Part shown: positions 39,271 through 53,273 of the stretch, in pieces
Layout of the letters: every line of letters starts with the position of its first letter
Position numbering within the stretch: position 1 is the first letter of the stretch
Source: an uncultured Bacilli bacterium
GTDB lineage: Bacteria > Bacillota_I > Bacilli_A > RFN20 > CAG-826
Direction of reading: 5' to 3'
DNA length: 64,000 nt
NCBI GenBank assembly: GCA_934168325.1
Contig: CAKPNG010000003.1
Coordinates: 918-64,917, forward strand
Translations under genes and position numbers: made by a program
Notes under the pieces: model-generated
Told to the model about the DNA's origin: nothing
Databases searched by the model: none
Seen by the model: only the letters and a program-made list of their open reading frames with translations

Positions 39271-41238
39271 ATGGCAAATTTATCGCTTAAACACATTTAC
39301 AAAATATATGAAAACGGCACTAGAGCTGTTGATGATTTTAATTTAGAAATTAAAGATGATGAATTTATAGTTTTTGTAGGACCTAGTGGATGCGGTAAAT
39401 CTACTACTTTAAGAATGATTGCAGGGCTTGAAGAAATTACTGCAGGAGATTTTTATATTGATGGTGTTTTAGCTAATAATTTAGAACCAAAAGATCGTGA
39501 TATGGCGATGGTTTTCCAAAATTATGCTCTTTATCCACATATGTCAGTTTATGATAATATGGCTTTTGGATTAAAAATTAGACATGTTAATAAAGAAGAA
39601 ATAGATAAAAGAGTTCATGAAGCTGCTAAAATTTTAGATATTGAAAATCAATTAGATAAAAAACCTAAAAATATGAGTGGTGGTCAAAGACAACGTGTTG
39701 CTTTAGGTAGAGCCATCGTTAGAAAACCTAAAGTATTTTTACTTGATGAGCCTTTAAGTAATTTAGATGCTAAACTAAGAAGTTCAATGAGAAGTGAAAT
39801 AACTAGATTGCATAATGTTTTAAAAACTACTTTTATTTATGTTACTCATGATCAAGTTGAAGCGATGACTATGGGTAGTAGGATTGTTGTTATGAAAGAA
39901 GGTGTTATTAAACAAGTTGATACACCAATGAATTTATATGATTATCCTGAAAATATATTTGTTGCTGGATTTATTGGAACTCCTCAAATGAATTTTATTA
40001 ATGCTAAATTAGATTATGATAAAGAAGAAATATTATTAAAAACTATTTTTAAAGATATAAGTTGTTCTATATCTGATATTTCTAAGATTGATAAATTAAA
40101 TATTATTAAGAAAAAAGATATTGTAATTGGAGTTAGACCTGAACATATTTCAATATGTAATAAAGATGATATTAATGCTTTTGAATGTGAAGTTGTAGTA
40201 ATTGAGAATTTAGGTAATGAAGCTAATATTATTGTAGAAACTACTTCTAATAAAGAGAAATTAGTTATTAAAACTATTAGAAATGATTTATTAAATGTAG
40301 GTAGTCATATTTATATTAAATTTAATATTAATAAAATACATCTATTCTTAAAAGAAGATGAACATACTTTATTAAATAGAATTCCAAAATCATTTACTAT
40401 TAATGCTAAATTATTTAATAAAGAATTAACTTTATTAAATAATAAAATAATATTAAATGATTATTTATATAATAAGATTAAAGATAATAAAGAATTATTA
40501 TTAAATATACCTTTAGATGCTTTGCATATTGGTAATGAATTTGAATTAATTATTACTAAAAAAGAAAAGATTAATAATAAATGGTTATATGAAGTTAAAT
40601 TAAATGATGAATATTTATATTATGCTGATGATAATTATATTGATGGAGATAAATTAAATATATCAATAGATTTATCTAAAGTTAGTTTTTATGATATTAA
40701 TGGTAATTTAATATTAGATAGATTAAATAAAGATAATATAATTGATGGTGAATTAACTGAGATTAAAAAGAAATTACCTTGTAAGAAAAATAATTTAGTT
40801 GATGTTGATTTATATAATAAATATTTATTAGCTTTATCTAATAATGATACTAATTTACTAAAAGAATTAAATATTAAAGAAAAAGTAAGAAAAGTATTTA
40901 ATTATAAGTTATTAAATACTGAAATAGAAACGTCAATAGAAAATATAATTAAAATTTATGGTTTATTAGGAAAGAAATTTTATTTACATCATATTGGCTA
41001 TATTTCAAATGCTGATAATTTAAAAATAGAAGAAAGAGGGGAGATTAGAGGGGTTATTGAAGAAATAATCGACTTTAATATTTCTAAATATTATAAAGTT
41101 AAATTATTAGATTTAGATAAAACTATAATAGTAAAAGATAACGATAATAATTGTAATATAAATGATAATGTCAATATATTAATTGATAAAGATCATATTG
41201 GTGTTATTGATAAAGACTTTAATGTGAGGTTAATTTAA
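39271..41238 (+). CDS. MsmX/MalK/UgpC-type ABC ATPase with a ~295-aa C-terminal extension
   Basis: It has a canonical NBD ([50 protein letters not shown]). The TOBE-like domain ends at ...NINKIHLF (about 40350). A further ~295 aa of Asn/Lys/Ile-rich sequence follows with no motif I recognise. Confidence 0.85.
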
Positions 41239-42248
41239 TGGGTGTCACAATAAAAGATATTGCAAAAGAATGTAATTGCTCAATAACTTCCGTTAGCTTT
41301 GTTTTAAATGATAAAAGTGATTTAGTAGGTAAAGAAACTGCTGAAAGAATTTTAGCTACTTGTAAAAAATATAATTATAAACCTAATTATATTGCTGCTG
41401 CTTTAAAAAATAAAACTACTAAAACAGTTGGTATATTAATTCCTGATATTGAAAATAGTTATTATGCTCGAATTATTAAATGTTTAGAAAATTTATTAAA
41501 AGAAAAAGGATATTCATTAATATTCGCTGATTCTGGTTATAATTTTGATCAATTTGAAAAGAATGTAATTGATATTACAAATAGATCAATTGATTATTTA
41601 ATAATTGTTCCACCAAGTTTATTCCAAGAAGTAGATGAAGAAAAAATTAATAGTGTTGCTAAAATGATTACTGTCCCTTATGTAATTTTAGATAGAAAAA
41701 TATCATTTGGAGATTGTCCTATTATTATTAATGATGATATTAAAGGTGGATATTTAGCTACTAAATATTTAATTGATTTAGGACATAAAAAAATTGCTTG
41801 TATTACTGGACCTAAAAATATTTCTTCATCATTAGAAAGATTAAAAGGTTATAAAAAAGCTTTAAAAGAAGCTCATATTCCTTTTGATAATAGTTTATTG
41901 GTAGAAGGAAATTATAGATTTGAAGGATCTATTAATGTTGCTAAAGATATTATTTTAAATAAAAAAGCCGATGCAATCTTTGCTTTTAATGATTTAAGTG
42001 CTTATGCTGTATATAAAATAGCTAATGATAATGATATTAAAATTGGTGAAGATTTATCTTTAGTTGGATTTGATGATAACCAATTTTCTGGCTTAATATC
42101 TCCAGGACTTACTAGTGTAAAACAAAATATTGAAGGTTTATGTAAAACTGTGATAAAGAAATTAATGAGTGGTAATCAAACAAATAATACAACAAAGATT
42201 GAACCAACATTAACGATTAGAGGAAGTGTAAAAAATGTTAAGTCTTAA
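41238..42248 (+). CDS. LacI/GalR-family transcriptional repressor
   Basis: It has the N-terminal HTH VTIKDIAKECNCSITSVSFVLN and a periplasmic-binding-protein-like effector domain (LVGFDD). The start overlaps the upstream stop (TAATG). Confidence 0.85.
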   Translation: MGVTIKDIAKECNCSITSVSFVLNDKSDLVGKETAERILATCKKYNYKPNYIAAALKNKTTKTVGILIPDIENSYYARIIKCLENLLKEKGYSLIFADSGYNFDQFEKNVIDITNRSIDYLIIVPPSLFQEVDEEKINSVAKMITVPYVILDRKISFGDCPIIINDDIKGGYLATKYLIDLGHKKIACITGPKNISSSLERLKGYKKALKEAHIPFDNSLLVEGNYRFEGSINVAKDIILNKKADAIFAFNDLSAYAVYKIANDNDIKIGEDLSLVGFDDNQFSGLISPGLTSVKQNIEGLCKTVIKKLMSGNQTNNTTKIEPTLTIRGSVKNVKS

Positions 42249-43227
42249 GTTAAAAAAGAAAATCAAACCTTATGATGAAGCATTAAAAACTATTTCTCCA
42301 TTAGCTAGACATCATAAAGAGAAGAAATGGAATAAAAGTAGTATTGAATTAATGACTATGGTTTCTTTTGGAATAGTTTTTATTGCAATATTTGCTTATT
42401 TACCAATGTTTGGATTAATTTTAGCTTTTAAAAGTGGTGATGGATATTTAAATATTATGCAAGCAATATTTGACTCAAGTTGGGTTGGATTTGATAATTT
42501 TAAAACATTTTTTGAAGATCCTGAATTTAGTAACGTTATGTTAAATACATTAGGATTAAATATTTTACAATTATGTATTAATTTTCCATTACCTATATTT
42601 TTTGCAATATTATTAAGTGAATTACCTTGGAAAAAGATACGTAAAACTATTCAAGTTATTACTTATTTTCCTTATTTTTTAAGTTGGATTACTTATGGTG
42701 CAATTATTTTAGCTTTAATAAATAGTGATGGAATTATTAATGTAATATTACTTAAAACTGGAATTATCGATCAAGCAATTAATTTTGGAGAACCTCAATA
42801 TTTTTGGGCAACTATTATTATAACTTCTTTACTTAAAGGTATGGGTTGGGGAAGTGTAATTTATGTTGCTGCTATTGCTGGTATTGATCCACAATTATTT
42901 GAAGCTGCTGATATGGATGGTGCAAATAGATTTTATAGAATTTTCCATATCACAATTCCTTCAATTGCGCCTACTATAATTTTATTCTTTATTTTGTCAG
43001 TCAGTGGATTATTAAATAATGGCTTTGATCACATATATACCTTCCAAAACCAGATTAATTTATCGAAATCGGAGGTTTTAGATACCTATATTTATAAGTA
43101 TGGAACTGTCAATCTACAATACTCTTATACGACAGCTGTTGGCTTATTTAAATCAATTGTTGCAGTTATTTTATTAGGCTGTGGAAACTTTGTTGCTAAG
43201 AAAACAACAGGAAGTGGGATTTTCTAA
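42235..43227 (+). CDS. ABC sugar permease (LplB/YteP-like)
   Basis: It has the EAA loop LFEAADMDGANRFYRIFHITIPSI and is a paralogue of 7306-8334. Confidence 0.85.
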   Translation: MLSLKLKKKIKPYDEALKTISPLARHHKEKKWNKSSIELMTMVSFGIVFIAIFAYLPMFGLILAFKSGDGYLNIMQAIFDSSWVGFDNFKTFFEDPEFSNVMLNTLGLNILQLCINFPLPIFFAILLSELPWKKIRKTIQVITYFPYFLSWITYGAIILALINSDGIINVILLKTGIIDQAINFGEPQYFWATIIITSLLKGMGWGSVIYVAAIAGIDPQLFEAADMDGANRFYRIFHITIPSIAPTIILFFILSVSGLLNNGFDHIYTFQNQINLSKSEVLDTYIYKYGTVNLQYSYTTAVGLFKSIVAVILLGCGNFVAKKTTGSGIF

Positions 43228-44150
43228 TGGTTAAGCATAAGATATATAAAAAGAATCAATTAATGATTGGAAGTAATGGAAGAAAACAAAAGAAGCATAC
43301 TTTTGATTGGATAAATTTAGTTGTTTTAAGTGTCTTTGCTTTAGCTAGTATTTATCCTTTAATATACGTTATTGCTGGTTCATTTAATGAAGGCAGTGAT
43401 TATATTAATGGTGGTATCTGGTTATATCCTCGTGTATTTTCTTTAGAAAATTATCAAGTTGTTTTAAATGATGCTAGATTATGGAAAAGTTATGGAATAA
43501 CTATTGCTAGAACTGTTATTGGAACTATTGCTAGTGTTTTATACACTGCAGTTGTTGCTTATGCAATGAGTAGACCTAATCTAGTTGGTAAACCTATTAT
43601 TTATAGATTCTTTATTATTACAATGTTTTTTGGTGGAGGACTTATTCCTTATTTCTGGGTTATTAATTTATTAGGTTTATTTGATAATTTCTTAGTTTAT
43701 ATAATTCCTGCTTTATTCTCTGTTTATAATATGTTAGTTTTTGTAAATTTCTTTAAAGGAATACCTGAAGAAATTCATGAATCTGCTGTAATGGATGGAG
43801 CTAGTGAATTTAAAATATTCTTTTCAATTATGCTTCCTTTAAGTGGTCCTGTTTTATCAACTGTTGCTTTATGGAATGCCGTGGGTCACTGGAATTCTTT
43901 TTTCGATACGATGATTTATACATCTAGTGAGAATTTATGGACTTTACAATATTATTTAATGAAAGTTATTAAAGAATCATCAATGCCTGCTGCTGGAGTT
44001 AATTTACCAATTGAATTATTGAATAAAATTGCTCCTGAAACTGTCTCTTTAGCAGCAATTATGGTTAGTGTTATTCCAATATTTATTTTATATCCAGTAA
44101 TTTTAAAAACCTTAACAAAAGGAGTAGTAGTTGGCTCTTTAAAAGGTTAA
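43227..44150 (+). CDS. ABC sugar permease (LplC/YtcP-like)
   Basis: It has the EAA loop IHESAVMDGASEFKIFFSIMLPLSGP and is a paralogue of 8336-9241. Confidence 0.85.
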   Translation: MVKHKIYKKNQLMIGSNGRKQKKHTFDWINLVVLSVFALASIYPLIYVIAGSFNEGSDYINGGIWLYPRVFSLENYQVVLNDARLWKSYGITIARTVIGTIASVLYTAVVAYAMSRPNLVGKPIIYRFFIITMFFGGGLIPYFWVINLLGLFDNFLVYIIPALFSVYNMLVFVNFFKGIPEEIHESAVMDGASEFKIFFSIMLPLSGPVLSTVALWNAVGHWNSFFDTMIYTSSENLWTLQYYLMKVIKESSMPAAGVNLPIELLNKIAPETVSLAAIMVSVIPIFILYPVILKTLTKGVVVGSLKG

Positions 44151-44165
44151 TAGGAGGTTATCTTT

Positions 44166-45905
44166 ATGCATAAAAAAATTACTTTATTATTTTTAATGTC
44201 ATTAATGACTTTAAGTTTAGTTAGTTGTGGTAATAATAAAACTGCAACTTATCCTAATTTTCCTAATACTCCAGGCGATAAAGATTCTTGGGAATATCTT
44301 AAAGATGAAAATGGAAAAGTCGAAAGTTGGGATTTAGAATGGTATGTTAATGATTCTTCATTTTCTTGGAATACATATGGAAATGATCGAGTTAGTGAGA
44401 TAATTAAAGAAAAAACAGGTGTTAATATTAAATTTGTTTCTCCTGTTACTGATGATAATCAAAAATTATCTACTTTAATTAGTGGTAATAAATTACCTGA
44501 TATGATAAGTGTTCAATCTTGGTATAGTCAATGTTCTCAACTTGCTAATCAAGGATATTTATATTCTTTAGATGGTTTAATTGAAAGATGGGCTCCTTCT
44601 TTTAAAAATAAGATCCAAGAAGATATGTGGAATTATTTTAAAGAAGGTGATGGTAATACTTATGGTGTACCTAATTTTGCTTATTCTACTAAATATATAA
44701 GTGATGATGAAAAATTAGAACCTAATGGATGTTTAATGGTTAGAGAAGATTGGTATAAAGAAGCTTATCTAGCAGGTTATGATATGACAACTACTAAATC
44801 TTTTATTCAAGGTTGTAAATATATTAAAAATAAATATGAAGAAGCTATTCCTTTCCAATTAGATGCTTTTACTGGTGAAGGAAATGACTCAATTGATTGG
44901 CTAGCTCAATATTTTTGTTCATCTTATGAAGATAAAGATGGTAATTATTTAGATATTAGATTAACTGATCGATATAAAGAAATGCTTGGTTTTTTAAATG
45001 AATGTAATAAAGAAGAAATTATTAGACCAAGTAATTATTCTGATAAAGCTGCTCAAATTAGAACTAATATATCTAGAGGTAATTGTTTTGTAACTGCTGT
45101 TACTCCTCAAGATTATCAAGCTGCATTTTTAAATGCTTATGCTGATAATAAAACATATGTTCCTTTAATATTAAAAAATAAAGATAATGAAGCTCCTATT
45201 TTACAAGATATTTCTGGTAATGGTTATTTATTAACAATGATTACTAGAAATTGTAAAAGACCTGATAAAGCTATTAAATTATTAGAATTTTTATATAGTG
45301 AAGAAGGTCAAAGATTAGTTGCTTTTGGTGTTGAAGGTGAATCTTATACTTGGAATGATACTCATACTGAAATTAGTTGGACTGATCGATATATTAGTGG
45401 TGTTAATGGTAATAAAGAAGATCAAGCTTGGATCAATAGTTTAGGTTTATATAACATGACTTTAGTTATGAATTTAGCTTATATTAATAAGCTTAAACCA
45501 TTAAATGGTCGTAAAGATAAAGATATTTATATTGATAATATGAAAAGACCTTTAACTCCTTATTCATATAATTTTAAACCAACTTTCTTAAAGCATGATA
45601 CCGGTGATAAATCTTATTTTAATGTAACAACAACCGCTAATAAGATTAAAACTAAATGGGCTGAAGCTTTAATTAAGATTATTAGAGCAGAAAATTACGA
45701 AACAGAATATGATAGTGCTATTAATTATGCTAAAAGACAAGGTTTAGAAAAAGTTATTACATTTTATAAACAAAGTTATACAAATACTAAAAAAATATTA
45801 GGCGTTACTTATGGATATCCTAAAAATAATCCATCTTATAAAGAACCTACTTTTGTAACTAGTAATGGAGATTTTTCTTATTGGAGAGGAGCAACACATG
45901 AATAA
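44166..45905 (+). CDS. ABC transporter solute-binding lipoprotein (large family-1 SBP)
   Basis: It has a GGAGG RBS. The lipobox is LMSLMTLSLVSCGN. It is 579 aa and adjacent to the permeases. Confidence 0.8.
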   Translation: MHKKITLLFLMSLMTLSLVSCGNNKTATYPNFPNTPGDKDSWEYLKDENGKVESWDLEWYVNDSSFSWNTYGNDRVSEIIKEKTGVNIKFVSPVTDDNQKLSTLISGNKLPDMISVQSWYSQCSQLANQGYLYSLDGLIERWAPSFKNKIQEDMWNYFKEGDGNTYGVPNFAYSTKYISDDEKLEPNGCLMVREDWYKEAYLAGYDMTTTKSFIQGCKYIKNKYEEAIPFQLDAFTGEGNDSIDWLAQYFCSSYEDKDGNYLDIRLTDRYKEMLGFLNECNKEEIIRPSNYSDKAAQIRTNISRGNCFVTAVTPQDYQAAFLNAYADNKTYVPLILKNKDNEAPILQDISGNGYLLTMITRNCKRPDKAIKLLEFLYSEEGQRLVAFGVEGESYTWNDTHTEISWTDRYISGVNGNKEDQAWINSLGLYNMTLVMNLAYINKLKPLNGRKDKDIYIDNMKRPLTPYSYNFKPTFLKHDTGDKSYFNVTTTANKIKTKWAEALIKIIRAENYETEYDSAINYAKRQGLEKVITFYKQSYTNTKKILGVTYGYPKNNPSYKEPTFVTSNGDFSYWRGATHE

Positions 45906-46818
45906 TACATTAAAAAAAGTAATCTTAGATACTGATATTGGTGATGATATTGATGATTCTTTTGCTTTATTACTTTTATTAGAAAGTCATAAATTTGATT
46001 GTTTAGGTGTTACTACTGTTTTTAGAAATTCAATAAAAAGAGCAAAGATGGCTAAATGTCTTATTGCTTCTTTAGGATATGATATTAAAGTTTATCCAGG
46101 TATAGATAATCCTATTAAACAAGATATTAATCATTTAATTTCTAAAGAAATAAAAGCAAAAGAAGTAGTTGATGAAGATGGTAAATATTTATTCCCTCAA
46201 TGGGATGAGAAAATGAAAGATTATCGAATAGAAAGCACTAATGCAGTTGATTTTATTATTGAATCTATTCATAAATATCCTAATGAAGTAACTTTAATTC
46301 CGATTGGTCCAATGACTAATATTGCTTTAGCCATTAAAAAAGATCCTTCTATAATTCCTTTAATTAAAGAAATTAGATTTATGGGAGCAGGGCTTGATTT
46401 TAATTTTGTAGAATGGAATATATTTTGTGATCCTGAAGCAGCAAGTATTGTTATTAATAGTGGTGTTAAAAAAATAGTTGGTATTACTTTAAATACTACT
46501 AGTTTAACTACTTTAACTGATAAAGAAGTTCATGATTTAAAAAATAATAAATCAAATGCAATTAAACTTGTTTATGAAGCGATGATGAAATGGTTTAGCC
46601 ACTATCAATTTGCTAATCCTGTAATGCATGATCCTTTAACAGTAGCAAGTTTAATTGATGAAGATATAGTGACATTAAAAAAGGCTAAATTAGATGTAGA
46701 TTTATCTAGAGATGGTTATACATTTATAAATGATAATAAATCTAGTGAAATTTATATTTCTACATCTTTGAATAAAGAGAAGTTCTTTAGTTTATTTAAA
46801 GAAATTCTTGATATTTAA
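45898..46818 (+). CDS. Nucleoside hydrolase (IUNH) family protein, cytoplasmic
   Basis: The ATG at 45898 follows GGAGAGGAG (the track starts at 45865). The N-terminal Asp cluster VILDTDIGDDIDDSFALLLLL corresponds to the DxDxxxDD calcium/ribose-binding fingerprint. There is a later WNIFCDPEAA motif. Confidence 0.7.
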   Translation: MNNTLKKVILDTDIGDDIDDSFALLLLLESHKFDCLGVTTVFRNSIKRAKMAKCLIASLGYDIKVYPGIDNPIKQDINHLISKEIKAKEVVDEDGKYLFPQWDEKMKDYRIESTNAVDFIIESIHKYPNEVTLIPIGPMTNIALAIKKDPSIIPLIKEIRFMGAGLDFNFVEWNIFCDPEAASIVINSGVKKIVGITLNTTSLTTLTDKEVHDLKNNKSNAIKLVYEAMMKWFSHYQFANPVMHDPLTVASLIDEDIVTLKKAKLDVDLSRDGYTFINDNKSSEIYISTSLNKEKFFSLFKEILDI

Positions 46819-46842
46819 TGCAAATTAGAAAGGAGTGATAAT

Positions 46843-49377
46843 ATGACTAAAATTGCATTAGGTTTATCATTTGCAAGTACTGTTGCAATGATTGTAGCAC
46901 CATTTAGTACTAAAAAATTAAAAACTGAAACTAGTCTTGATGGTGATTTATATGGAGCAGCTCACATTAAATGTAGTAAAAAAAGAGATGCTGATAGTGG
47001 TAATGTCTTTGAAATTAATGCTGAACGTAATGGAAATTCTAATTTTTCAGGGGATGGGATCTATTTAAGAATAAGAAATTATACAAGTACAGATACACCT
47101 ATTACTTTTAAGATTAATTCAACTAATGGTGTTATAATTGCGCCTACTACTAACGTTAAACAAACTTATTATACAGCTGATGGAGTGGAAACTGATGGTA
47201 TTGCTCCTCGTGGTTGGGGAAATTACATGATGCTACCTGCTAATTTTGATGGTTTTATTTATATGAATTACACCACTCAAATGTCTAAAATTGCAGGGGA
47301 AGGTAATTTTACAAGTAATTCTATTTGGAGAATATATGTTGAATATAGCGGATTTTATGATCATTATGCAGATTTTGCTATAGGTGATATATTTACAAAT
47401 ACTAAAAGTATTTTAGATACTTCAGAATTATCTACTGAAGAATTTAATAAAACATTTATTAATCAATGCCCTGATTATCAAAGTGTTACTCAATTAGAAA
47501 GAGCAGATTCTTTTGTACCTGATGGTGATTTTAAAGGTGGAATTAATTATAAATTAGGAAGTTATGGCGGATTTATGGTTAAATTCGATTCATTTGATTT
47601 TACTGATGGAGTTTATATTCGTATTAAAAATAATTTAGATAAGATTACTTGGCTCATGATTCATGCTGCTAGTGATGTATTTGCTAATAGATCAATTATT
47701 AAAGCAGGTGGAGAAGTATCTTATTACGATAATACTGGTAAATTTAGTAAGAAAGTAACTGCTAATGAATGGAAATATTTTGAATTACCTGCTAATTTTG
47801 ATGGTTATTTAAGTTTTAATAAAGATGCTTTAGAAGGTGATACTGGTTGGGCTGGATCAAATTATAATATTAAAACTACTAATGCAATTTATTTTGAAGC
47901 TGATGGTATCGATATTAATGTTGGTGACATATTCTCTAAAGTTAATAAAGCATATGATGGTAGTGAAATATATGCTAGTGTTGCTTTAAGTAATCATTTT
48001 GAAACTTGGAGTGGTGGAACTGGTACTATTTTAGAAGGCAGTAAAGAATTACCTATCGTTTTATTTGATTATACTAAGATTAATTTAAGTGGCGATGTTG
48101 AAAATGGTGTTAATATTACTAGTAATAAAAATAGTGATAGTAGTGTATTTTCTACTGCAACTGCTAGATTTAAAGAAAATATTAATTTAAGTGAAGGTGA
48201 AGCAATATCTATTAGTTTTGAAGGTGCTGGAAATTATGCTTTCCAATTAGAATTTGTTGATGCTAACGATAATATTTTAAATATGCCAAGTGCTTCTAAT
48301 AGTACTAGAAATCCAATTTATTTTATTAGTAATGGTGTAGCTACTCCAATGAATCATACTACTGGAGATCCTAATACTATTCACACAATCGAAGGAAAAG
48401 GAAATATTGTTATTGAAAAGAGTTTCTTAAATCAAAAAGCTGGTGAAAGTTTTGATTGGAGTAAAGTTAAAGGATTTAATGTTATTTGTCATACTTTCTA
48501 CGATTCTGGATTAAATATTTCTTTTGGTGATATAGGTGTTATTTCTCAAACTGATTTAAAACAAACTCTTGTTTATAGAGTTAGTGAAGTAGAATATGAT
48601 GGAGTTTATAGTGCTTTAGATGCATTTATGAATGTTAATAAAGTTTATACTTCTATTCCATCTAGTTGGATTGGTGATGTTAAAATTATTGATTCATTAA
48701 ATTATAAAGATGATAAGACTTTAAAACAAAATGTTACTTATGATATAGGTGATAATGCTTGTAGTTATAATAAAGAAAAAGACGGTATGTTTGTTCATAT
48801 TGGACCTTTTGAATCCGGACATACTTATGGTAATTATATGTGTTTAGGTATGTTTGATAAAAATGTAACTAGTGACCGTAAAATTGCTTATAGAACGAAC
48901 GAAGAAAATAAAGAATATGCTAAAGGTATTACTTTCTATTGTGAAAATAGATCAGTTAAAGAAATTGGTTTAACTTTACAATTTGATGAATTAATTCCTG
49001 GTAAAACTACTACTGAAAGATGGTGTATTACTGGATATCCTGCAATGTATTTAGCTTATGACGTTGAAAAAGATATTGATTACATGATGTATTCAAAATC
49101 TGATCAAGTTCAAATTCCTGTCGGATTTAAAGGATATATTAGAGTTCCATTTACATCTTACACTGTTCCTGATTGGAATAAAGGTATGGATGGAGTCGAT
49201 GCTATTTTAAATTTAGATAATTTTTCAGGTAATTTCTTCTTAACTAGTGATAATACTAGATATGAAGATTTAGAATATTTTATTAAGAATGTTGGCTTAT
49301 ATTTTAATGATACATATAAAACTACTTTCTTATCAAAAGAAAATACTATTAAAACTAATATGGGGTTAAAAGACTAA
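46843..49377 (+). CDS. Large secreted or membrane-anchored protein built from four degenerate ~140-180-aa modules, unknown family
   Basis: It has an AAAGGAG RBS and an N-terminal hydrophobic segment IALGLSFASTVAMIVAPF with no lipobox Cys. The internal repeats are GIYLRIRNYT...LPANFDGFIYMNY...FAIGDIF and GVYIRIKNNL...LPANFDGYLSFNK...INVGDIF. Two more divergent copies end in ISFGDIGV and IKNVGLYF. Confidence 0.75.
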   Translation: MTKIALGLSFASTVAMIVAPFSTKKLKTETSLDGDLYGAAHIKCSKKRDADSGNVFEINAERNGNSNFSGDGIYLRIRNYTSTDTPITFKINSTNGVIIAPTTNVKQTYYTADGVETDGIAPRGWGNYMMLPANFDGFIYMNYTTQMSKIAGEGNFTSNSIWRIYVEYSGFYDHYADFAIGDIFTNTKSILDTSELSTEEFNKTFINQCPDYQSVTQLERADSFVPDGDFKGGINYKLGSYGGFMVKFDSFDFTDGVYIRIKNNLDKITWLMIHAASDVFANRSIIKAGGEVSYYDNTGKFSKKVTANEWKYFELPANFDGYLSFNKDALEGDTGWAGSNYNIKTTNAIYFEADGIDINVGDIFSKVNKAYDGSEIYASVALSNHFETWSGGTGTILEGSKELPIVLFDYTKINLSGDVENGVNITSNKNSDSSVFSTATARFKENINLSEGEAISISFEGAGNYAFQLEFVDANDNILNMPSASNSTRNPIYFISNGVATPMNHTTGDPNTIHTIEGKGNIVIEKSFLNQKAGESFDWSKVKGFNVICHTFYDSGLNISFGDIGVISQTDLKQTLVYRVSEVEYDGVYSALDAFMNVNKVYTSIPSSWIGDVKIIDSLNYKDDKTLKQNVTYDIGDNACSYNKEKDGMFVHIGPFESGHTYGNYMCLGMFDKNVTSDRKIAYRTNEENKEYAKGITFYCENRSVKEIGLTLQFDELIPGKTTTERWCITGYPAMYLAYDVEKDIDYMMYSKSDQVQIPVGFKGYIRVPFTSYTVPDWNKGMDGVDAILNLDNFSGNFFLTSDNTRYEDLEYFIKNVGLYFNDTYKTTFLSKENTIKTNMGLKD

Positions 49378-49378
49378 T

Positions 49379-50482
49379 ATGAAAACAAATCGAGTTATAT
49401 TTTATTTCTTATCGACATTACTTTTGGTTAGTTGTGGTAATAAAGTTAAAACACCTATTTATGAATTAGGTGATAAAAAAGATGTGATGGGTAGTGGATT
49501 ATTATTTAGTGAAACTATTGGATTTAATACTAAAGATGCTACTATTTTTGAAGAAAATGATGAAAGATTTATTATTTATGATGCTAATGAAGTAAGTAAA
49601 GGTAATCAAGTATTTGCTATTAGAAAAGGTGTTAAAGAAAATAATAAATGGGTTTATAAAGAAAAAAATATTATATTTAAAGGTAATGAAGAAGGCTGGG
49701 ATAAATATATTTATCAGCCTAGTATCATTAAAGGTAAATTTAATTATAACAATGAAGAATATAAATATTTATTAGCTTATCAAGGTAATAATAGTAATGA
49801 TAATTACAATAATCATATTGGTTTAGCTGTTACTAATGATTTATTTTCTAATTTTATTAGAGTAGGTAATACTCCTATATTAACTAATCCTACTATATAT
49901 AGTGGTAGTTTTGGATTTGGTAGTCCTAGTTTAACTTCTATTAATAAAGAAGGTAAAGTAATGTTATCTTATTCTTTTGGTGAAACTAATTTATCAGGTA
50001 CTAGAGTAATGGAATTAGATCTTTCTAATCTTAATAAAATTAATAGTGAAGTAGGTTATACAGAACTTAATGCTAGTGGATTAAAATTAAGAGAAGATGG
50101 AATTATATCTAATGCGACATTTATTTTTAATGATGATTATAGTAAAGCTTATTTAGTTAATGATGGAATGCCAAGTAGTAATGCTCCTGGTCAAGCTAAT
50201 GCTATTGAAGTAGCTAGTGCTAATAGTTCAATTATTTATGATATTAATACTAAATGGAATTCTATTAAAAATATTATGGGTAGTGATACGATGATTAAAG
50301 AAGATGAAACTTCTTTAGGATGGGATGAAATTTATAGTGGAACTATCGTTACTAATGAATATGGTTTAGTTAATAAAGATAGTAAGAAATTAGAAGTTAT
50401 TTATTCTACTTATCAAGAAGGTATAGAAGATTCTAAATTCACTGCTCAATTATGTTCTTTTGAGGTTAATTTAAGTGAATAA
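49379..50482 (+). CDS. Surface lipoprotein, beta-propeller-like (GH43/GH32-superfamily-like?), unknown specificity
   Basis: The lipobox is FLSTLLLVSCGN. The recurring blade-like motifs are YIYQPSIIKG, IGLAVTNDLFSNF and GSPSLTSINKEGKVMLSY. It is a paralogue of the next gene. Confidence 0.35.
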   Translation: MKTNRVIFYFLSTLLLVSCGNKVKTPIYELGDKKDVMGSGLLFSETIGFNTKDATIFEENDERFIIYDANEVSKGNQVFAIRKGVKENNKWVYKEKNIIFKGNEEGWDKYIYQPSIIKGKFNYNNEEYKYLLAYQGNNSNDNYNNHIGLAVTNDLFSNFIRVGNTPILTNPTIYSGSFGFGSPSLTSINKEGKVMLSYSFGETNLSGTRVMELDLSNLNKINSEVGYTELNASGLKLREDGIISNATFIFNDDYSKAYLVNDGMPSSNAPGQANAIEVASANSSIIYDINTKWNSIKNIMGSDTMIKEDETSLGWDEIYSGTIVTNEYGLVNKDSKKLEVIYSTYQEGIEDSKFTAQLCSFEVNLSE

Positions 50483-51674
50483 GAAATATTTAATATTAAG
50501 TAGTATATTATTTATGCTTACTGGTTGTAATAAAGTAGATAATCAAGATAATATTATTCCTACTAAAAAGGAAGATTTTATTCCTGAAGTAGGGGAAGTT
50601 AGATTATTATTTGAACATGGGACAATTGGGGAAGATAAATATTATGATTATTGTCCATCAATATTTATCGAAAATAATGAATCTCATGTTTATTATTGTA
50701 CTAATAAAGATGAAGGTAATGTAACTGACTATGTTGGTTATAAAAATGGGAAAATAATTAATGATAAAGTAGTTTATCCTAGTGAAATGAATTATGTTTT
50801 AAGTCATGGGGAACATGGATCTTGGGATTCTAGACATGCTTGTGATCCTAGTGTTATTAAAGGTGAATTTAAATTTCATAATGAAACTTATAATTATTTA
50901 ATGGCTTATTTAGGATGTGTTCCTAGTGACTGTACACTTAATGAAACTGGTATTGCAGTTAGTAAAACTCCTAGTGGTCCTTGGATAAAATGTGATTTTA
51001 AAAGTGATGGAGTAACTAAAATTAATCCCCTTGTTAAATATAGTGAATTTGATTGTAATGACTCTAGCTGGGGAACAGGTCAACCTTCTTTAGTATCGGT
51101 TGATAAAAAAGGAAGAGTATTATTATTTACTACTATTGGAGCAAAAAATGGTACTTTTACTAATTTAAGAGAATATGATTTTTCTGATATTGATAATTAT
51201 AAATTAATTAGAGAAAGAAAAGCGATTAATACAACAGGTATTAGAGGTACTGGAAGTAATGCTAATATGATTAATAATGCTGATTTTGCTTATGATGAAG
51301 TTAAAAATAGAATCATAGTTAGTAAGCCTCGTCAATATTTTGGAACTGATGGTAAAGCACCTAATTTTATTGCTGATACGATTGATGTTTATTATATTGA
51401 TAATGATGGAAGTAGTGTTGGTGATGTATTCTTTAAAGGAAATAATACGACTGCATCGTGGAAATTAATAGGTAGTATTAATCAAGAATTAACTGGATTT
51501 TTAAGAAATCATAATACTGGATTAATTACTGATGAATTTGCTAGAATTATTCAAGATAAGAATTTAGGTGTAGCTTTTACTAGAAGTGATGAATCAGCGG
51601 GTAGTAGTGATTGGGGTCATTTATCTACTTATAGAATTTATGCTACTGGTATGAAATTACCTAGTGATTATTAA
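50475..51674 (+). CDS. Surface lipoprotein, beta-propeller-like paralogue
   Basis: It has a GTG start with GAGG 8 nt upstream. The lipobox is SSILFMLTGCNK. The motifs are WDSRHACDPSVIKGEF, TGIAVSKTPSGPW and GQPSLVSVDKKGRVLLF. Confidence 0.35.
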   Translation: MNKKYLILSSILFMLTGCNKVDNQDNIIPTKKEDFIPEVGEVRLLFEHGTIGEDKYYDYCPSIFIENNESHVYYCTNKDEGNVTDYVGYKNGKIINDKVVYPSEMNYVLSHGEHGSWDSRHACDPSVIKGEFKFHNETYNYLMAYLGCVPSDCTLNETGIAVSKTPSGPWIKCDFKSDGVTKINPLVKYSEFDCNDSSWGTGQPSLVSVDKKGRVLLFTTIGAKNGTFTNLREYDFSDIDNYKLIRERKAINTTGIRGTGSNANMINNADFAYDEVKNRIIVSKPRQYFGTDGKAPNFIADTIDVYYIDNDGSSVGDVFFKGNNTTASWKLIGSINQELTGFLRNHNTGLITDEFARIIQDKNLGVAFTRSDESAGSSDWGHLSTYRIYATGMKLPSDY

Positions 51675-51684
51675 TTAAATTTAT

Positions 51685-52392
51685 ATGGGTAAAAAGACAC
51701 TAGAAGGGAAATTAAATAGTCCTTTATATAGATATTCTAAGCTTGCTTTTGATTTATTAATGCTTAATATAATCTTTATTTTAGTAAGTGTATTATCTTT
51801 ATTTAGTTTATTTTTTCCTGGTTTAGTGTCTTTACATACCATTATGAATAATATAATTAATAATAAAGATGATGAAAATGTTTATAAAACTTTCTTTTTA
51901 GAGATTAAACGTCAATGGAGTTTTTCTTGGAGAATTGAAGTTTTAGGAATAATCATCTTATTAATTATTGGTGTTATTATTTATTTTGATTTTGTTGTAA
52001 TAGTTAATACTAAAGTTAGTTATATTGGTTATATTTCTTTATGTTTTATTATTCCAATATTTTTAGTATTACTTAGTATATTTATTAATTTAATGTTATT
52101 TAATAATTATTATAAAGATGATACTTTCGTGATGATGATTCAAAAATCAGCGTTAATATCGCTTAAAAAGAAATTATTAACTTTTATTAATTTAATAATA
52201 TTTATATGTTTTTTTGTAATTTTATTTTTTATACCTTATATTGCTCCTTTTATTTCGTTTAGTTTATATATTTATATTATTGAAGCTATTAATCAAAAAG
52301 CGTTTATAGAAATATCTAATAACGAAAAAGAAAGAGCATTGATGGTTGAGAATTTATTTTTACCGATGGTTATTGAGGAGAAAGATAAATGA
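51685..52392 (+). CDS. YesL-like (DUF624) integral membrane protein
   Basis: It has about 5-6 helices. The N-terminal part YRYSKLAFDLLMLNIIFILVSVLSLFSLFFPG resembles DUF624 proteins that accompany CUT1 sugar transporter loci. Confidence 0.5.
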   Translation: MGKKTLEGKLNSPLYRYSKLAFDLLMLNIIFILVSVLSLFSLFFPGLVSLHTIMNNIINNKDDENVYKTFFLEIKRQWSFSWRIEVLGIIILLIIGVIIYFDFVVIVNTKVSYIGYISLCFIIPIFLVLLSIFINLMLFNNYYKDDTFVMMIQKSALISLKKKLLTFINLIIFICFFVILFFIPYIAPFISFSLYIYIIEAINQKAFIEISNNEKERALMVENLFLPMVIEEKDK

Positions 52393-53273
52393 AGAAGTGT
52401 TTAGTAGTTGGTAGTTTAAATATGGATTATACTGTTTATTTAAATAGTGATTTCCCTATTAATGGTGAGACTTGTTTTGGAAGAAATAGATTTATTCAAC
52501 CTGGGGGAAAAGGTGAAAATCAAGCAGTAGCTTTAGCTAAATCTAAAATGTGTGATGTGACAATGATTGGTGCTATTGGTAATGATAGTGATGGAACTAT
52601 TATTAAAGATACTTTAATTAAATATGGTGTTAAACCAGTTCTTAAAGTATGTGAAGATAGCGAAACTGGTAATGCGACAATTGTTATTGATAAAAATAGT
52701 GAGAATAAGATCATTATTATTGAAGGAAGTAATGGTAAATTAACTAGTAAAGATATTGAATTAAAGTTATTTGATGAAATGGATTATTTAATAATTCAAA
52801 ATGAAATTAGTGAAGAAGTTAATGAATTTTGTATTAAAGAAGCTAAAGCTAGAAATAAAATAGTTATTTATAATCCTGCTCCTTATAGAGCTATTAAGGA
52901 AGAGTTATATAGTTATATTGATTATTTTATTCCTAATGAAATTGAACTTAAAATGTATACTAATCTTGATGATATTAATGAATCTATCGATTATTTATTA
53001 TCTAAAGGAATTAAAAATGTATTAGTTACTTTAGGTACTCAAGGTAGTTTATTTAAGTCTATTGATCAAGAAATAAAAGTAGGATGTTATAAAGTTAATG
53101 CTATTGATACAGTCGCTGCTGGAGATACTTATGTTGGATATTTTACTAGTTCATTAGCTAGTGGATATTCTATTAAAGAATCTATGGATATAGCTAGTAA
53201 AGCTAGTTCAATTACAGTAAGTAGAAAAGGAAGTGTAATATCTATTCCTTATAAAGAAGAAGTTTTTAAATAA
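52389..53273 (+). CDS. rbsK: Ribokinase (PfkB family)
   Basis: It has GGKGENQAVALAK (the GGKGANQA motif) and DTVAAGDTYVGYF (the PfkB C-terminal signature). At 294 aa it has the expected length. Confidence 0.8.
   Translation: MKKCLVVGSLNMDYTVYLNSDFPINGETCFGRNRFIQPGGKGENQAVALAKSKMCDVTMIGAIGNDSDGTIIKDTLIKYGVKPVLKVCEDSETGNATIVIDKNSENKIIIIEGSNGKLTSKDIELKLFDEMDYLIIQNEISEEVNEFCIKEAKARNKIVIYNPAPYRAIKEELYSYIDYFIPNEIELKMYTNLDDINESIDYLLSKGIKNVLVTLGTQGSLFKSIDQEIKVGCYKVNAIDTVAAGDTYVGYFTSSLASGYSIKESMDIASKASSITVSRKGSVISIPYKEEVFK

Follow-up and report, generated by a model that had tools for sequence, protein, structure and literature searches.

What is the function of a four-module protein that is encoded inside a predicted sugar-uptake operon and matches no curated sequence family in Pfam or NCBIfam? 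We addressed this question for P0001, an 844-amino-acid (aa) protein encoded in a 64,000-nucleotide stretch of DNA from an uncultured Bacilli bacterium (assembly GCA_934168325.1, contig CAKPNG010000003.1, forward-strand positions 918 to 64,917); we refer to this entire stretch as the window. An earlier interpretation made from the DNA letters, the sequence-only reading, had described a surface protein of four degenerate jelly-roll-like modules, similar to tandem carbohydrate-binding modules (CBMs) of no assignable family, and had proposed that it captures substrate for the locus. Our profile comparisons and structure predictions indicate that the four modules are diverged copies of one undescribed beta-sandwich module that is distantly related to CBM11. 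We consider it probable, though well short of certain, that P0001 is a non-catalytic, multivalent substrate-capture protein, and that its modules mark a new CBM family.

The four modules are homologous

We found that the reading frame is intact and ends in a TAA stop codon, and that the encoded protein divides into an N-terminal export segment and four modules, D1 to D4, whose borders we took from the AlphaFold model (D1, aa 33-212; D2, aa 213-398; D3, aa 399-592; D4, aa 593-844):

46843..49377, forward strand: four-module protein gene (P0001), intact open reading frame, 844 aa, TAA stop
46843..46938, forward strand: N-terminal export segment, aa 1-32, hydrophobic IALGLSFASTVAMIVAPF followed by STKKLK
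46939..47478, forward strand: module D1 (aa 33-212), with GDLYGA, GIYLRIRN, LPANFDGF and AIGDIF; predicted all-beta, with a predicted local distance difference test score (pLDDT) of ~90-96
47479..48036, forward strand: module D2 (aa 213-398), with GDFKGG, GVYIRIKN, LPANFDGY and NVGDIF; profile match (hhalign) to D1
48037..48618, forward strand: module D3 (aa 399-592), with GDVENG, AISISFEG and a retained ISFGDIGV; profile matches (hhalign) to D1 and D2
48619..49374, forward strand: module D4 (aa 593-844), with WIGDVK, AKGITFYCENRS, IPVGFKGYIRVPF, NVGLYF and a C-terminal TIKxNMGL

To compare the modules, we split an alignment of P0001 and 44 homologues (A1, 45 sequences) at the module borders and aligned the resulting profiles with hhalign. 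D1 and D2, whose likeness had been noticed earlier, share 30% identity across 130 aa (pairwise BLAST E-value [E] 8e-10), and their profiles align over 163 columns with an E of 1e-44. This was the sole match in pairwise BLAST among the modules; neither D3 nor D4 was detected in that way. At the profile level, D3 aligned with both D1 (E 1.5e-14) and D2 (E 1.7e-13), while D4 initially aligned across just 23 columns, near LPANFDG/IPVGFKGY. We therefore turned to enriched profiles, to which modules of distant relatives were added and from which the few members overlapping D4-type matches were removed. With these enriched, cleaned profiles, D4 aligned with D1 over 145 columns (98.1% hhalign probability, E 1e-13) and with D2 at 96.8% probability; the enriched D3 and D4 profiles aligned at 95.8%. 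Since profile comparisons connect D1, D2, D3 and D4, we conclude that all four modules belong to one superfamily as judged from their sequences. The suggestion that modules 3 and 4 are further copies of the repeat thus holds, though their kinship lies beyond the reach of pairwise BLAST.

The alignments reveal four common landmarks. A GD-hydrophobic-x-x-G strand opens each module. The second landmark, G-x-Y-x-R-I-K-N (GIYLRIRN at aa 72-79 of D1, GVYIRIKN at aa 256-263 of D2), is paired with AKGITFYxKNxS in D4, where AKGITFYCENRS (aa 693-704) is its counterpart. The third, (L/I)P-x-x-F-(D/E)-G-(F/Y/W)-x-x-(I/V)-P-F, corresponds to LPANFDGF (aa 131-138) and LPANFDGY (aa 315-322) in D1 and D2 and to IPVGFKGYIRVPF (aa 758-770) in D4; in D3, this central motif has degenerated to IHTIEGKGNIVIEKSFL. 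The fourth, (I/V)GDI(F/G), is represented by AIGDIF (aa 179-184), NVGDIF (aa 359-364) and ISFGDIGV (aa 559-566), and is paired with N(V/I)G-x-YF in D4, within IKNVGLYF (aa 814-821). In addition, D1 and D2 contain IWRIYVE (aa 161-167) and AIYFE (aa 348-352), respectively. Every motif that had been listed for modules 1 to 4 thus lies where it had been placed. The description of four like modules needs one correction: although the modules are homologous, they are not equivalent, as D4 is larger (252 aa, with ~75 additional N-terminal residues relative to D1-D3) and far more conserved.

We next considered the distribution of the family. P0001 has 56 homologues at E<=1e-3 in a set of 5.8 billion proteins, all unnamed and without Pfam domains, and a set of 1.84 billion protein clusters yielded 92 representatives, none annotated. 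The host records are metagenome-assembled genomes of uncultured Mollicutes, Erysipelotrichaceae, Bacillales and Bacilli, and ruminants (for example roe-deer omasum and reindeer) are the source of several. Of 37 species in the window's genus, 3 contain a match to the D4 profile, as do 2 of 24 other genomes of the order; the locus is accessory. The order D1-D2-D3-D4 predominates (39 proteins), followed by D2-D3-D4 (5), D1-D1-D2-D3-D4 (3) and D2-D2-D2-D3-D4 (2), and D3-D4 proteins and tandem D4 arrays also occur. Orthologues carry 2 to 5 modules, with D4 always single and last; one distant protein, P0079, has a tandem array of up to seven modules. P0079, P0085 and P0114 are giants of 1419-1766 aa with 5 to 7 superfamily modules and are otherwise unannotated, apart from an LP2-like propeller (described below) at the N-terminus of P0085 and, in P0114, Big_1 domains together with a CBM_11 score that exceeds the threshold when summed.

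The sequence-only reading had also pointed to a 19-nucleotide (nt) DNA identity between modules 1 and 2. Indeed, CCTGCTAATTTTGATGGTT occurs as exact copies at 47236-47254 and 47788-47806, and a second copy of the stretch arose in 0 of 100 shuffles. We considered whether this identity marks a recent duplication or gene conversion and rejected the idea. The codons CCT, GCT, AAT, TTT, GAT and GGT each predominate among their synonyms in this locus of 25% GC, and under the locus codon bias two independent encodings of PANFDG would share all six codons with a probability of ~0.09. Because codon bias is strong and the PANFDG peptide is shared, the identity adds little; the signal behind it appears to be the conserved peptide.

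D4 has a predicted CBM11-like fold

AlphaFold2, run on alignment A1, yielded a model with a mean pLDDT of 89 that consists of a low-confidence helix (aa 2-17) and four all-beta domains. D4 modelled alone reached a pLDDT of 91.6 and a predicted template modelling (TM) score of 0.88. When we searched the PDB with this D4 model using Foldseek, the first four matches were all C. thermocellum CBM11 structures (1v0a, 6r3m, 6r31 and 2lro), with E of 3e-6 to 3e-5 (best 2.8e-6), probability 1.0 and target TM scores of 0.53-0.58. The CIA30/NDUFAF1 domain (7zkq, 7zkp) followed at ranks 5 and 8. Further matches came from GH50 agarases (their N-terminal CBM-like domain), CBM28, the X584 module that binds laminarin, CBM29 and CBM22, as well as from a C. 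difficile surface protein (its N-terminal domain). The first enzymes appeared at rank 36 (GH12, TM ~0.33) and rank 47 (an esterase). A search with the whole protein returned tandem beta-sandwich arrays (laminin LG, neurexin LNS) together with the same CBM11 match. These results bear out the proposed jelly-roll-like modules, and from the superposition of the D4 model on C. thermocellum CBM11 we assign to D4 a predicted CBM11-like beta-sandwich jelly-roll fold.

The sequence searches gave a different picture. Pfam, NCBIfam and the PDB sequences were searched with P0001 in full, with its 45-member and D4 alignments and with 16 distant modules; nothing rose above threshold for P0001, its homologues or the D4 profile, and a DUF237 match (E 0.17) was dismissed as noise. 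P0001 itself did not match Pfam CBM_11 (PF03425, gathering threshold 27 bits) at E<=10, and none of the 45 aligned sequences did so at E<=1. CBM_11 was the only family to recur among the 16 distant D4-type modules, of which 3 matched it below threshold (best E 1.9e-4). One such module, aa 914-1116 of P0114, matches the D4 profile with an E of 4e-26, and it is in its first half that CBM_11 matches best; P0114 reaches 38 bits on CBM_11 only when several modules are summed. Pfam scans of 28 distant relatives for partner domains gave weak matches to GH43, CBM_11 and Big_1 and nothing else. A 2026 CBM paper that we considered concerns CBM112, a Bacteroidota beta-mannan binder, and is unrelated. From these results, the superfamily appears to be a remote relative of CBM11, and not a member by the curated threshold. 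The impression of a CBM without an assignable family was therefore apt: the fold is CBM11-like, and no family in Pfam, NCBIfam or the PDB sequences matches above threshold. The novelty lies in the sequence family and not in the fold.

Comparison with CBM11 (PF03425; C. thermocellum Lic26A-Cel5E, 1v0a, 6r3m) shows how far the likeness goes. D4, like CBM11, is a beta-sandwich jelly-roll by its best Foldseek match, and modules of both kinds are attached to glycosidase-like domains in other proteins. Unlike CBM11, D4 is ~80 residues larger and superposes with TM scores of 0.42-0.58, and P0001, unlike the proteins that carry CBM11, stands alone as four modules with no catalytic domain; the specificity of CBM11 for beta-1,4 and mixed-linkage (beta-1,3-1,4) glucans, which it binds in a cleft of its concave sheet, is not transferable to it. 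The CIA30/NDUFAF1 complex I assembly factor domain has a beta-sandwich fold class in common with D4, but it belongs to a chaperone of eukaryotic mitochondria, is 6-8% identical and occurs in an unrelated context, and we regard this as a resemblance of fold only.

Probable propeller partners and a ribose-linked locus

The P0001 gene lies 24 nt downstream of the nucleoside-hydrolase-like gene and 1 nt upstream of the next gene, within the following set:

39271-41238, forward strand: MalK/MsmX-type ATPase with a long C-terminal extension (Pfam/NCBIfam)
41238-42248, forward strand: LacI regulator (Pfam/NCBIfam)
42235-44150, forward strand: two permeases (Pfam/NCBIfam)
44166-45905, forward strand: lipoprotein solute-binding protein, 579 aa (Pfam/NCBIfam)
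45865-46818, forward strand: nucleoside-hydrolase-fold enzyme (PF01156, 200 bits)
46829..46835, forward strand: ribosome-binding site AAAGGAG of the P0001 gene, read from the sequence, 7 nt ahead of the ATG
49379-50482, forward strand: LP1, lipoprotein, GH43/GH117-like propeller candidate
50475-51674, forward strand: LP2, lipoprotein, GH43/GH117-like propeller candidate, paralogous to LP1 (33% identical)
51685-52392, forward strand: DUF624/MusI-type membrane protein (DUF624 E 1.2e-7)
52389-53273, forward strand: ribokinase (PfkB E 1.4e-52, 179 bits)

LP1 and LP2 are the probable enzymatic partners of P0001. LP2 weakly matches PDB 3r4y, which we take to be a GH117 enzyme, and a relative of these lipoproteins in the L014 locus exceeds the Pfam GH43 threshold (E 6.6e-11; 42.5 bits, cutoff 32.2), a threshold that only some members of the propeller family reach. 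For LP2 itself, 373 homologues were found at E<=1e-3; nearly all lack a name, and 1 of the 120 listed carries a precomputed GH43 Pfam domain. The propeller family seems to be a GH43/GH117-clan branch that has yet to be classified.

The key tie between the modules and these candidate enzymes comes from other genomes, where proteins combine D1-type or D4-type modules with a GH43-like propeller of the LP1/LP2 family. In P0071, a propeller that resembles LP2 of the window (40% identity) is joined to a pair of D1-type modules and to a transmembrane segment at the C-terminus, P0119 consists of a module and a propeller, and P0085 joins a propeller to several modules. Fusion to glycosidase-like modules, tandem repetition and varying copy number are together classical CBM behaviour. 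P0071 is 99% identical to the product of L014:13661-16345, an 894-aa fusion of a propeller, two modules and a C-terminal transmembrane anchor. L014 is the most distant of the syntenic loci; there, the family is expanded by an extra 563-aa protein with two modules of D1/D2 type (L014:8268-9959), and the regulator is of the DeoR instead of the LacI type.

The placement of the gene is similarly conserved. In 13 genome loci, from Bacilli, Mollicutes and Erysipelotrichaceae of the gut and rumen and including L001, L002, L008 and L014, an ABC importer is followed in turn by the nucleoside hydrolase, the four-module gene, the propellers and the ribokinase, so that P0001 holds a constant position within a predicted locus for glycan uptake and degradation. 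The importer is a CUT1-type ABC system with a lipoprotein solute-binding protein, and the ribokinase scores 274 bits on TIGR02152, slightly below the equivalog cutoff of 299.65. Substrate capture, as proposed in the sequence-only reading, thus continues to be a deduction from context, but one that now has independent support from the propeller fusions and from a gene order kept in at least 13 genomes.

Several further features of this locus type were observed. The ATPase at 39271-41238 extends for ~295 aa past its TOBE domain; ATPases of 622-648 aa also head L001, L002, L008 and L014, and the extension is therefore a conserved trait of the locus type. The DUF624 and ribokinase genes are separate in the window, with a 4-nt overlap, and are fused (~529 aa) in L001, L002 and L008; the N-terminal half of the fusion at L001:16206-17795 is 44% identical to the window's DUF624 protein. 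By implication, the ribokinase acts at the membrane, beside the importer. One contig, CAVKNZ010000002.1 (L012/L002), is labelled 'Bacteroidaceae bacterium' and carries this same locus, of Firmicutes type, beside an EzrA gene; its bin label is probably wrong.

The gene content recalls the ribose-utilisation system Rus of Bacteroides thetaiotaomicron (BT2802-BT2809), a polysaccharide utilisation locus in which SusC/D and a permease are encoded alongside two ribokinases, a nucleoside hydrolase and a glycoside hydrolase at the cell surface that has no assigned family (bioRxiv 10.1101/574913). The Rus enzymes showed weak activities only, their roles were termed enigmatic by the authors, and the natural polymeric substrate was still unidentified in that 2019 preprint (bioRxiv 10.1101/574913). 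Like Rus, the window locus brings a ribokinase and a nucleoside-hydrolase-family enzyme together with a regulator, a glycosidase-like surface lipoprotein unassigned to any family, and proteins for binding and transport at the surface; by its predicted gene content, the window locus would thus qualify as Rus-like, with ribokinase, nucleoside-hydrolase-family enzyme, putative surface hydrolase and uptake genes. It differs in having an ABC importer with a lipoprotein solute-binding protein in place of SusC/SusD and the permease; the outer-membrane SusC/SusD pair that characterizes Rus is absent from the window locus, where a CUT1-type ABC system stands instead. Rus, for its part, has no described counterpart of the CBM11-like four-module protein. 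By analogy, the window locus may be read as an ABC-transporter counterpart of Rus.

We propose the following sequence of events. P0001 would be exported by the Sec pathway and would stay near the membrane, kept there by an N-terminal helix that is not cleaved off or by a lipid-anchored partner to which it docks. There it would bind a polymeric glycan, with the diverged, fast-evolving D1-D3 adding avidity or breadth and the enlarged, highly conserved D4 recognising a defined feature of the ligand. The glycan would be presented to the GH43-like propeller lipoproteins LP1 and LP2; the lipoprotein solute-binding protein would pick up the resulting fragments and pass them to the ABC transporter for import. 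Ribose or a related pentofuranose would then be freed in the cytoplasm by the nucleoside-hydrolase-fold enzyme and phosphorylated by the ribokinase. A bolder version of this model, which we put forward tentatively and think rather unlikely to hold in full, is that D4 founds a new CBM family recognising the ribofuranose-containing (or related pentofuranose) polymer of Rus-type loci, and that D4, the propellers and the solute-binding protein form a capture-and-cleave complex at the membrane surface, a single-membrane analogue of the Bacteroides utilisome.

A functional parallel is provided by the SusE/SusF-type surface glycan-binding proteins of Bacteroidota. Like P0001, these contain several tandem beta-sandwich domains and are encoded in a glycan-utilisation locus beside a transporter and surface enzymes; they are non-catalytic, as P0001 probably is, and P0001 would likewise keep substrate at the cell surface. 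We found no sequence relationship between them, however, and P0001 has neither a lipid anchor nor a SusC/SusD partner. Its host, unlike Bacteroidota, is an apparently wall-less, single-membrane organism with an ABC importer, and the likeness is a functional analogy only. The fold and the likely role of P0001 are of a known kind, that of a CBM or surface glycan-binding protein, while the sequence superfamily is undescribed: a dark family with no match in Pfam or NCBIfam and no sequence relative in the PDB, with its 92 representatives among 1.84 billion clusters. The predicted non-catalytic four-module binder could serve as an affinity probe for the substrate of the locus, and finding that ligand would assign a function to the propeller and nucleoside-hydrolase-fold enzymes as well. 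The system bears on how wall-less, Mollicutes-like bacteria of gut and rumen, with genomes of 1-2 Mb and no wall to which proteins could be attached, harvest polymers.

Surface retention, D4 conservation and alternative roles

How a protein such as P0001 would be kept at the cell surface is not obvious. As had been noted earlier, its N-terminus (MTKIALGLSFASTVAMIVAPFSTKKLK) is hydrophobic and lacks a lipobox: a helix is predicted for aa 2-17 (AlphaFold2, pLDDT <50), and the first Cys is at position 44. The segment of aa 1-32 is the least conserved region of the protein (17% mean identity) and could serve as a signal peptide or, if left uncleaved, as a signal anchor. Most homologues have MKK-hydrophobic-AxA signal peptides that look cleavable, and no C-terminal anchor. 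P0001 is thus better called a putative surface protein than, as in the sequence-only reading, a surface protein.

The host compounds this difficulty. Its genome (G000) is 96.5% complete, measures 1.69 Mb and has a GC content of 25%. We found no match in it to the penicillin-binding transpeptidase (PF00905) or Mur ligase (PF08245) families, which were detected in control genomes. Because both families are missing from a genome of this completeness, the organism appears to be wall-less and Mollicutes-like. Surface retention of P0001 must in that case rely on an uncleaved signal anchor or on docking to a lipid-anchored partner.

Several considerations weigh against substrate capture by a CBM-like protein. 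The protein has no recognisable anchor, and a binder released in soluble form would capture poorly for the cell. Without genes for wall synthesis, there is no wall to which it could be attached. Curated CBM families in Pfam and NCBIfam gave no significant sequence match, and the CBM11 superposition is moderate (TM 0.42 for the query and 0.58 for the target; root-mean-square deviation ~7 Å). Finally, the conservation of D4 exceeds what is expected of an ordinary CBM. Its mean identity is 63%, and 37% of its columns (93/252) are at least 90% conserved; for D1-D3, the corresponding values are 38-51% and 6-10%. Many Asp, Glu, His, Arg and Tyr residues of D4 are invariant; the invariant positions include D612, E657, H660, D678, R679, D715, R726, D740, K752, D754, R767 and D803. 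Aromatic residues are conserved in D4 as well, for example W609, Y665, W727, Y765 and W778. Simple avidity leaves this stronger conservation unexplained, and it could indicate a protein-protein interface or catalysis.

If D4 is an interface, it might, together with the C-terminal TIKxNMGL, dock onto a protein anchored in the membrane, be it one of the propeller lipoproteins, the DUF624 membrane protein or the solute-binding protein, and so assemble a surface complex, with any glycan binding confined to D1-D3. The tail (49342-49374, aa 834-844) is nearly invariant (I836, K837, N839, M840, G841 and L842), and the protein stops there, with no anchor beyond it; we speculate that the tail is a docking or packing element. 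The extreme conservation of D4 and of the last 9 residues would fit co-evolution with equally conserved partners, and a scaffold would suit both the lack of any anchor in most homologues and the lack of a wall, as would the presence of a transmembrane segment of its own in the module-propeller fusion protein. D4-type modules, however, occur in many proteins beyond this locus type and in tandem arrays, as is expected of a generic ligand-binding module, and the fold family is carbohydrate-binding. We therefore consider a mainly scaffolding role unlikely.

The same conservation raises the possibility that D4 is catalytic, a new jelly-roll glycoside hydrolase, lyase or esterase for which D1-D3 serve as CBMs, so that P0001 would be an endo-acting enzyme. 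Beta-jelly-roll enzymes are known (GH12, GH16, PL7). The contrast in conserved columns between D4 and D1-D3, the invariant residues listed above, the single C-terminal position of D4 in orthologues and its ~75 extra N-terminal residues all accord with such a role. Against it, the best structural matches are non-catalytic CBMs, enzymes appear only from rank 36 onwards, and the Pfam and NCBIfam searches returned no catalytic jelly-roll family of the GH12, GH16 or PL7 type. D4 is, moreover, homologous to D1-D3, and D4-type modules form tandem arrays of 2 to 7 per protein, which is typical of binding modules. Of the acidic and His residues that never vary in the core family, only D612 survives across 29 distant D4-type modules; what conservation persists there falls mostly on G, P, F, W, N and R. 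These observations make an enzymatic D4 improbable in our view. That P0001 is instead an adhesin for plant fibre, host mucus or other microbes, only loosely tied to the neighbouring catabolic genes, is very improbable: tandem beta-sandwich arrays are common in adhesins (compare the laminin LG and neurexin LNS matches) and the distribution within the genus is patchy, but the position between nucleoside hydrolase and propellers is strictly kept in distant genomes, the intergenic gaps are minimal, and the modules are elsewhere fused to propeller enzymes.

We thus return to P0001 as a probable glycan-capture protein, for which the composition of the family offers a hint about the ligand. All members are acidic (isoelectric point 4.4-4.8), and 14% of their residues are aromatic. 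Charge-based binding of nucleic acid or teichoic acid is accordingly disfavoured, as the entire family is acidic; the acidity and the aromatic content fit a neutral glycan better than polyanions such as RNA or teichoic acid.

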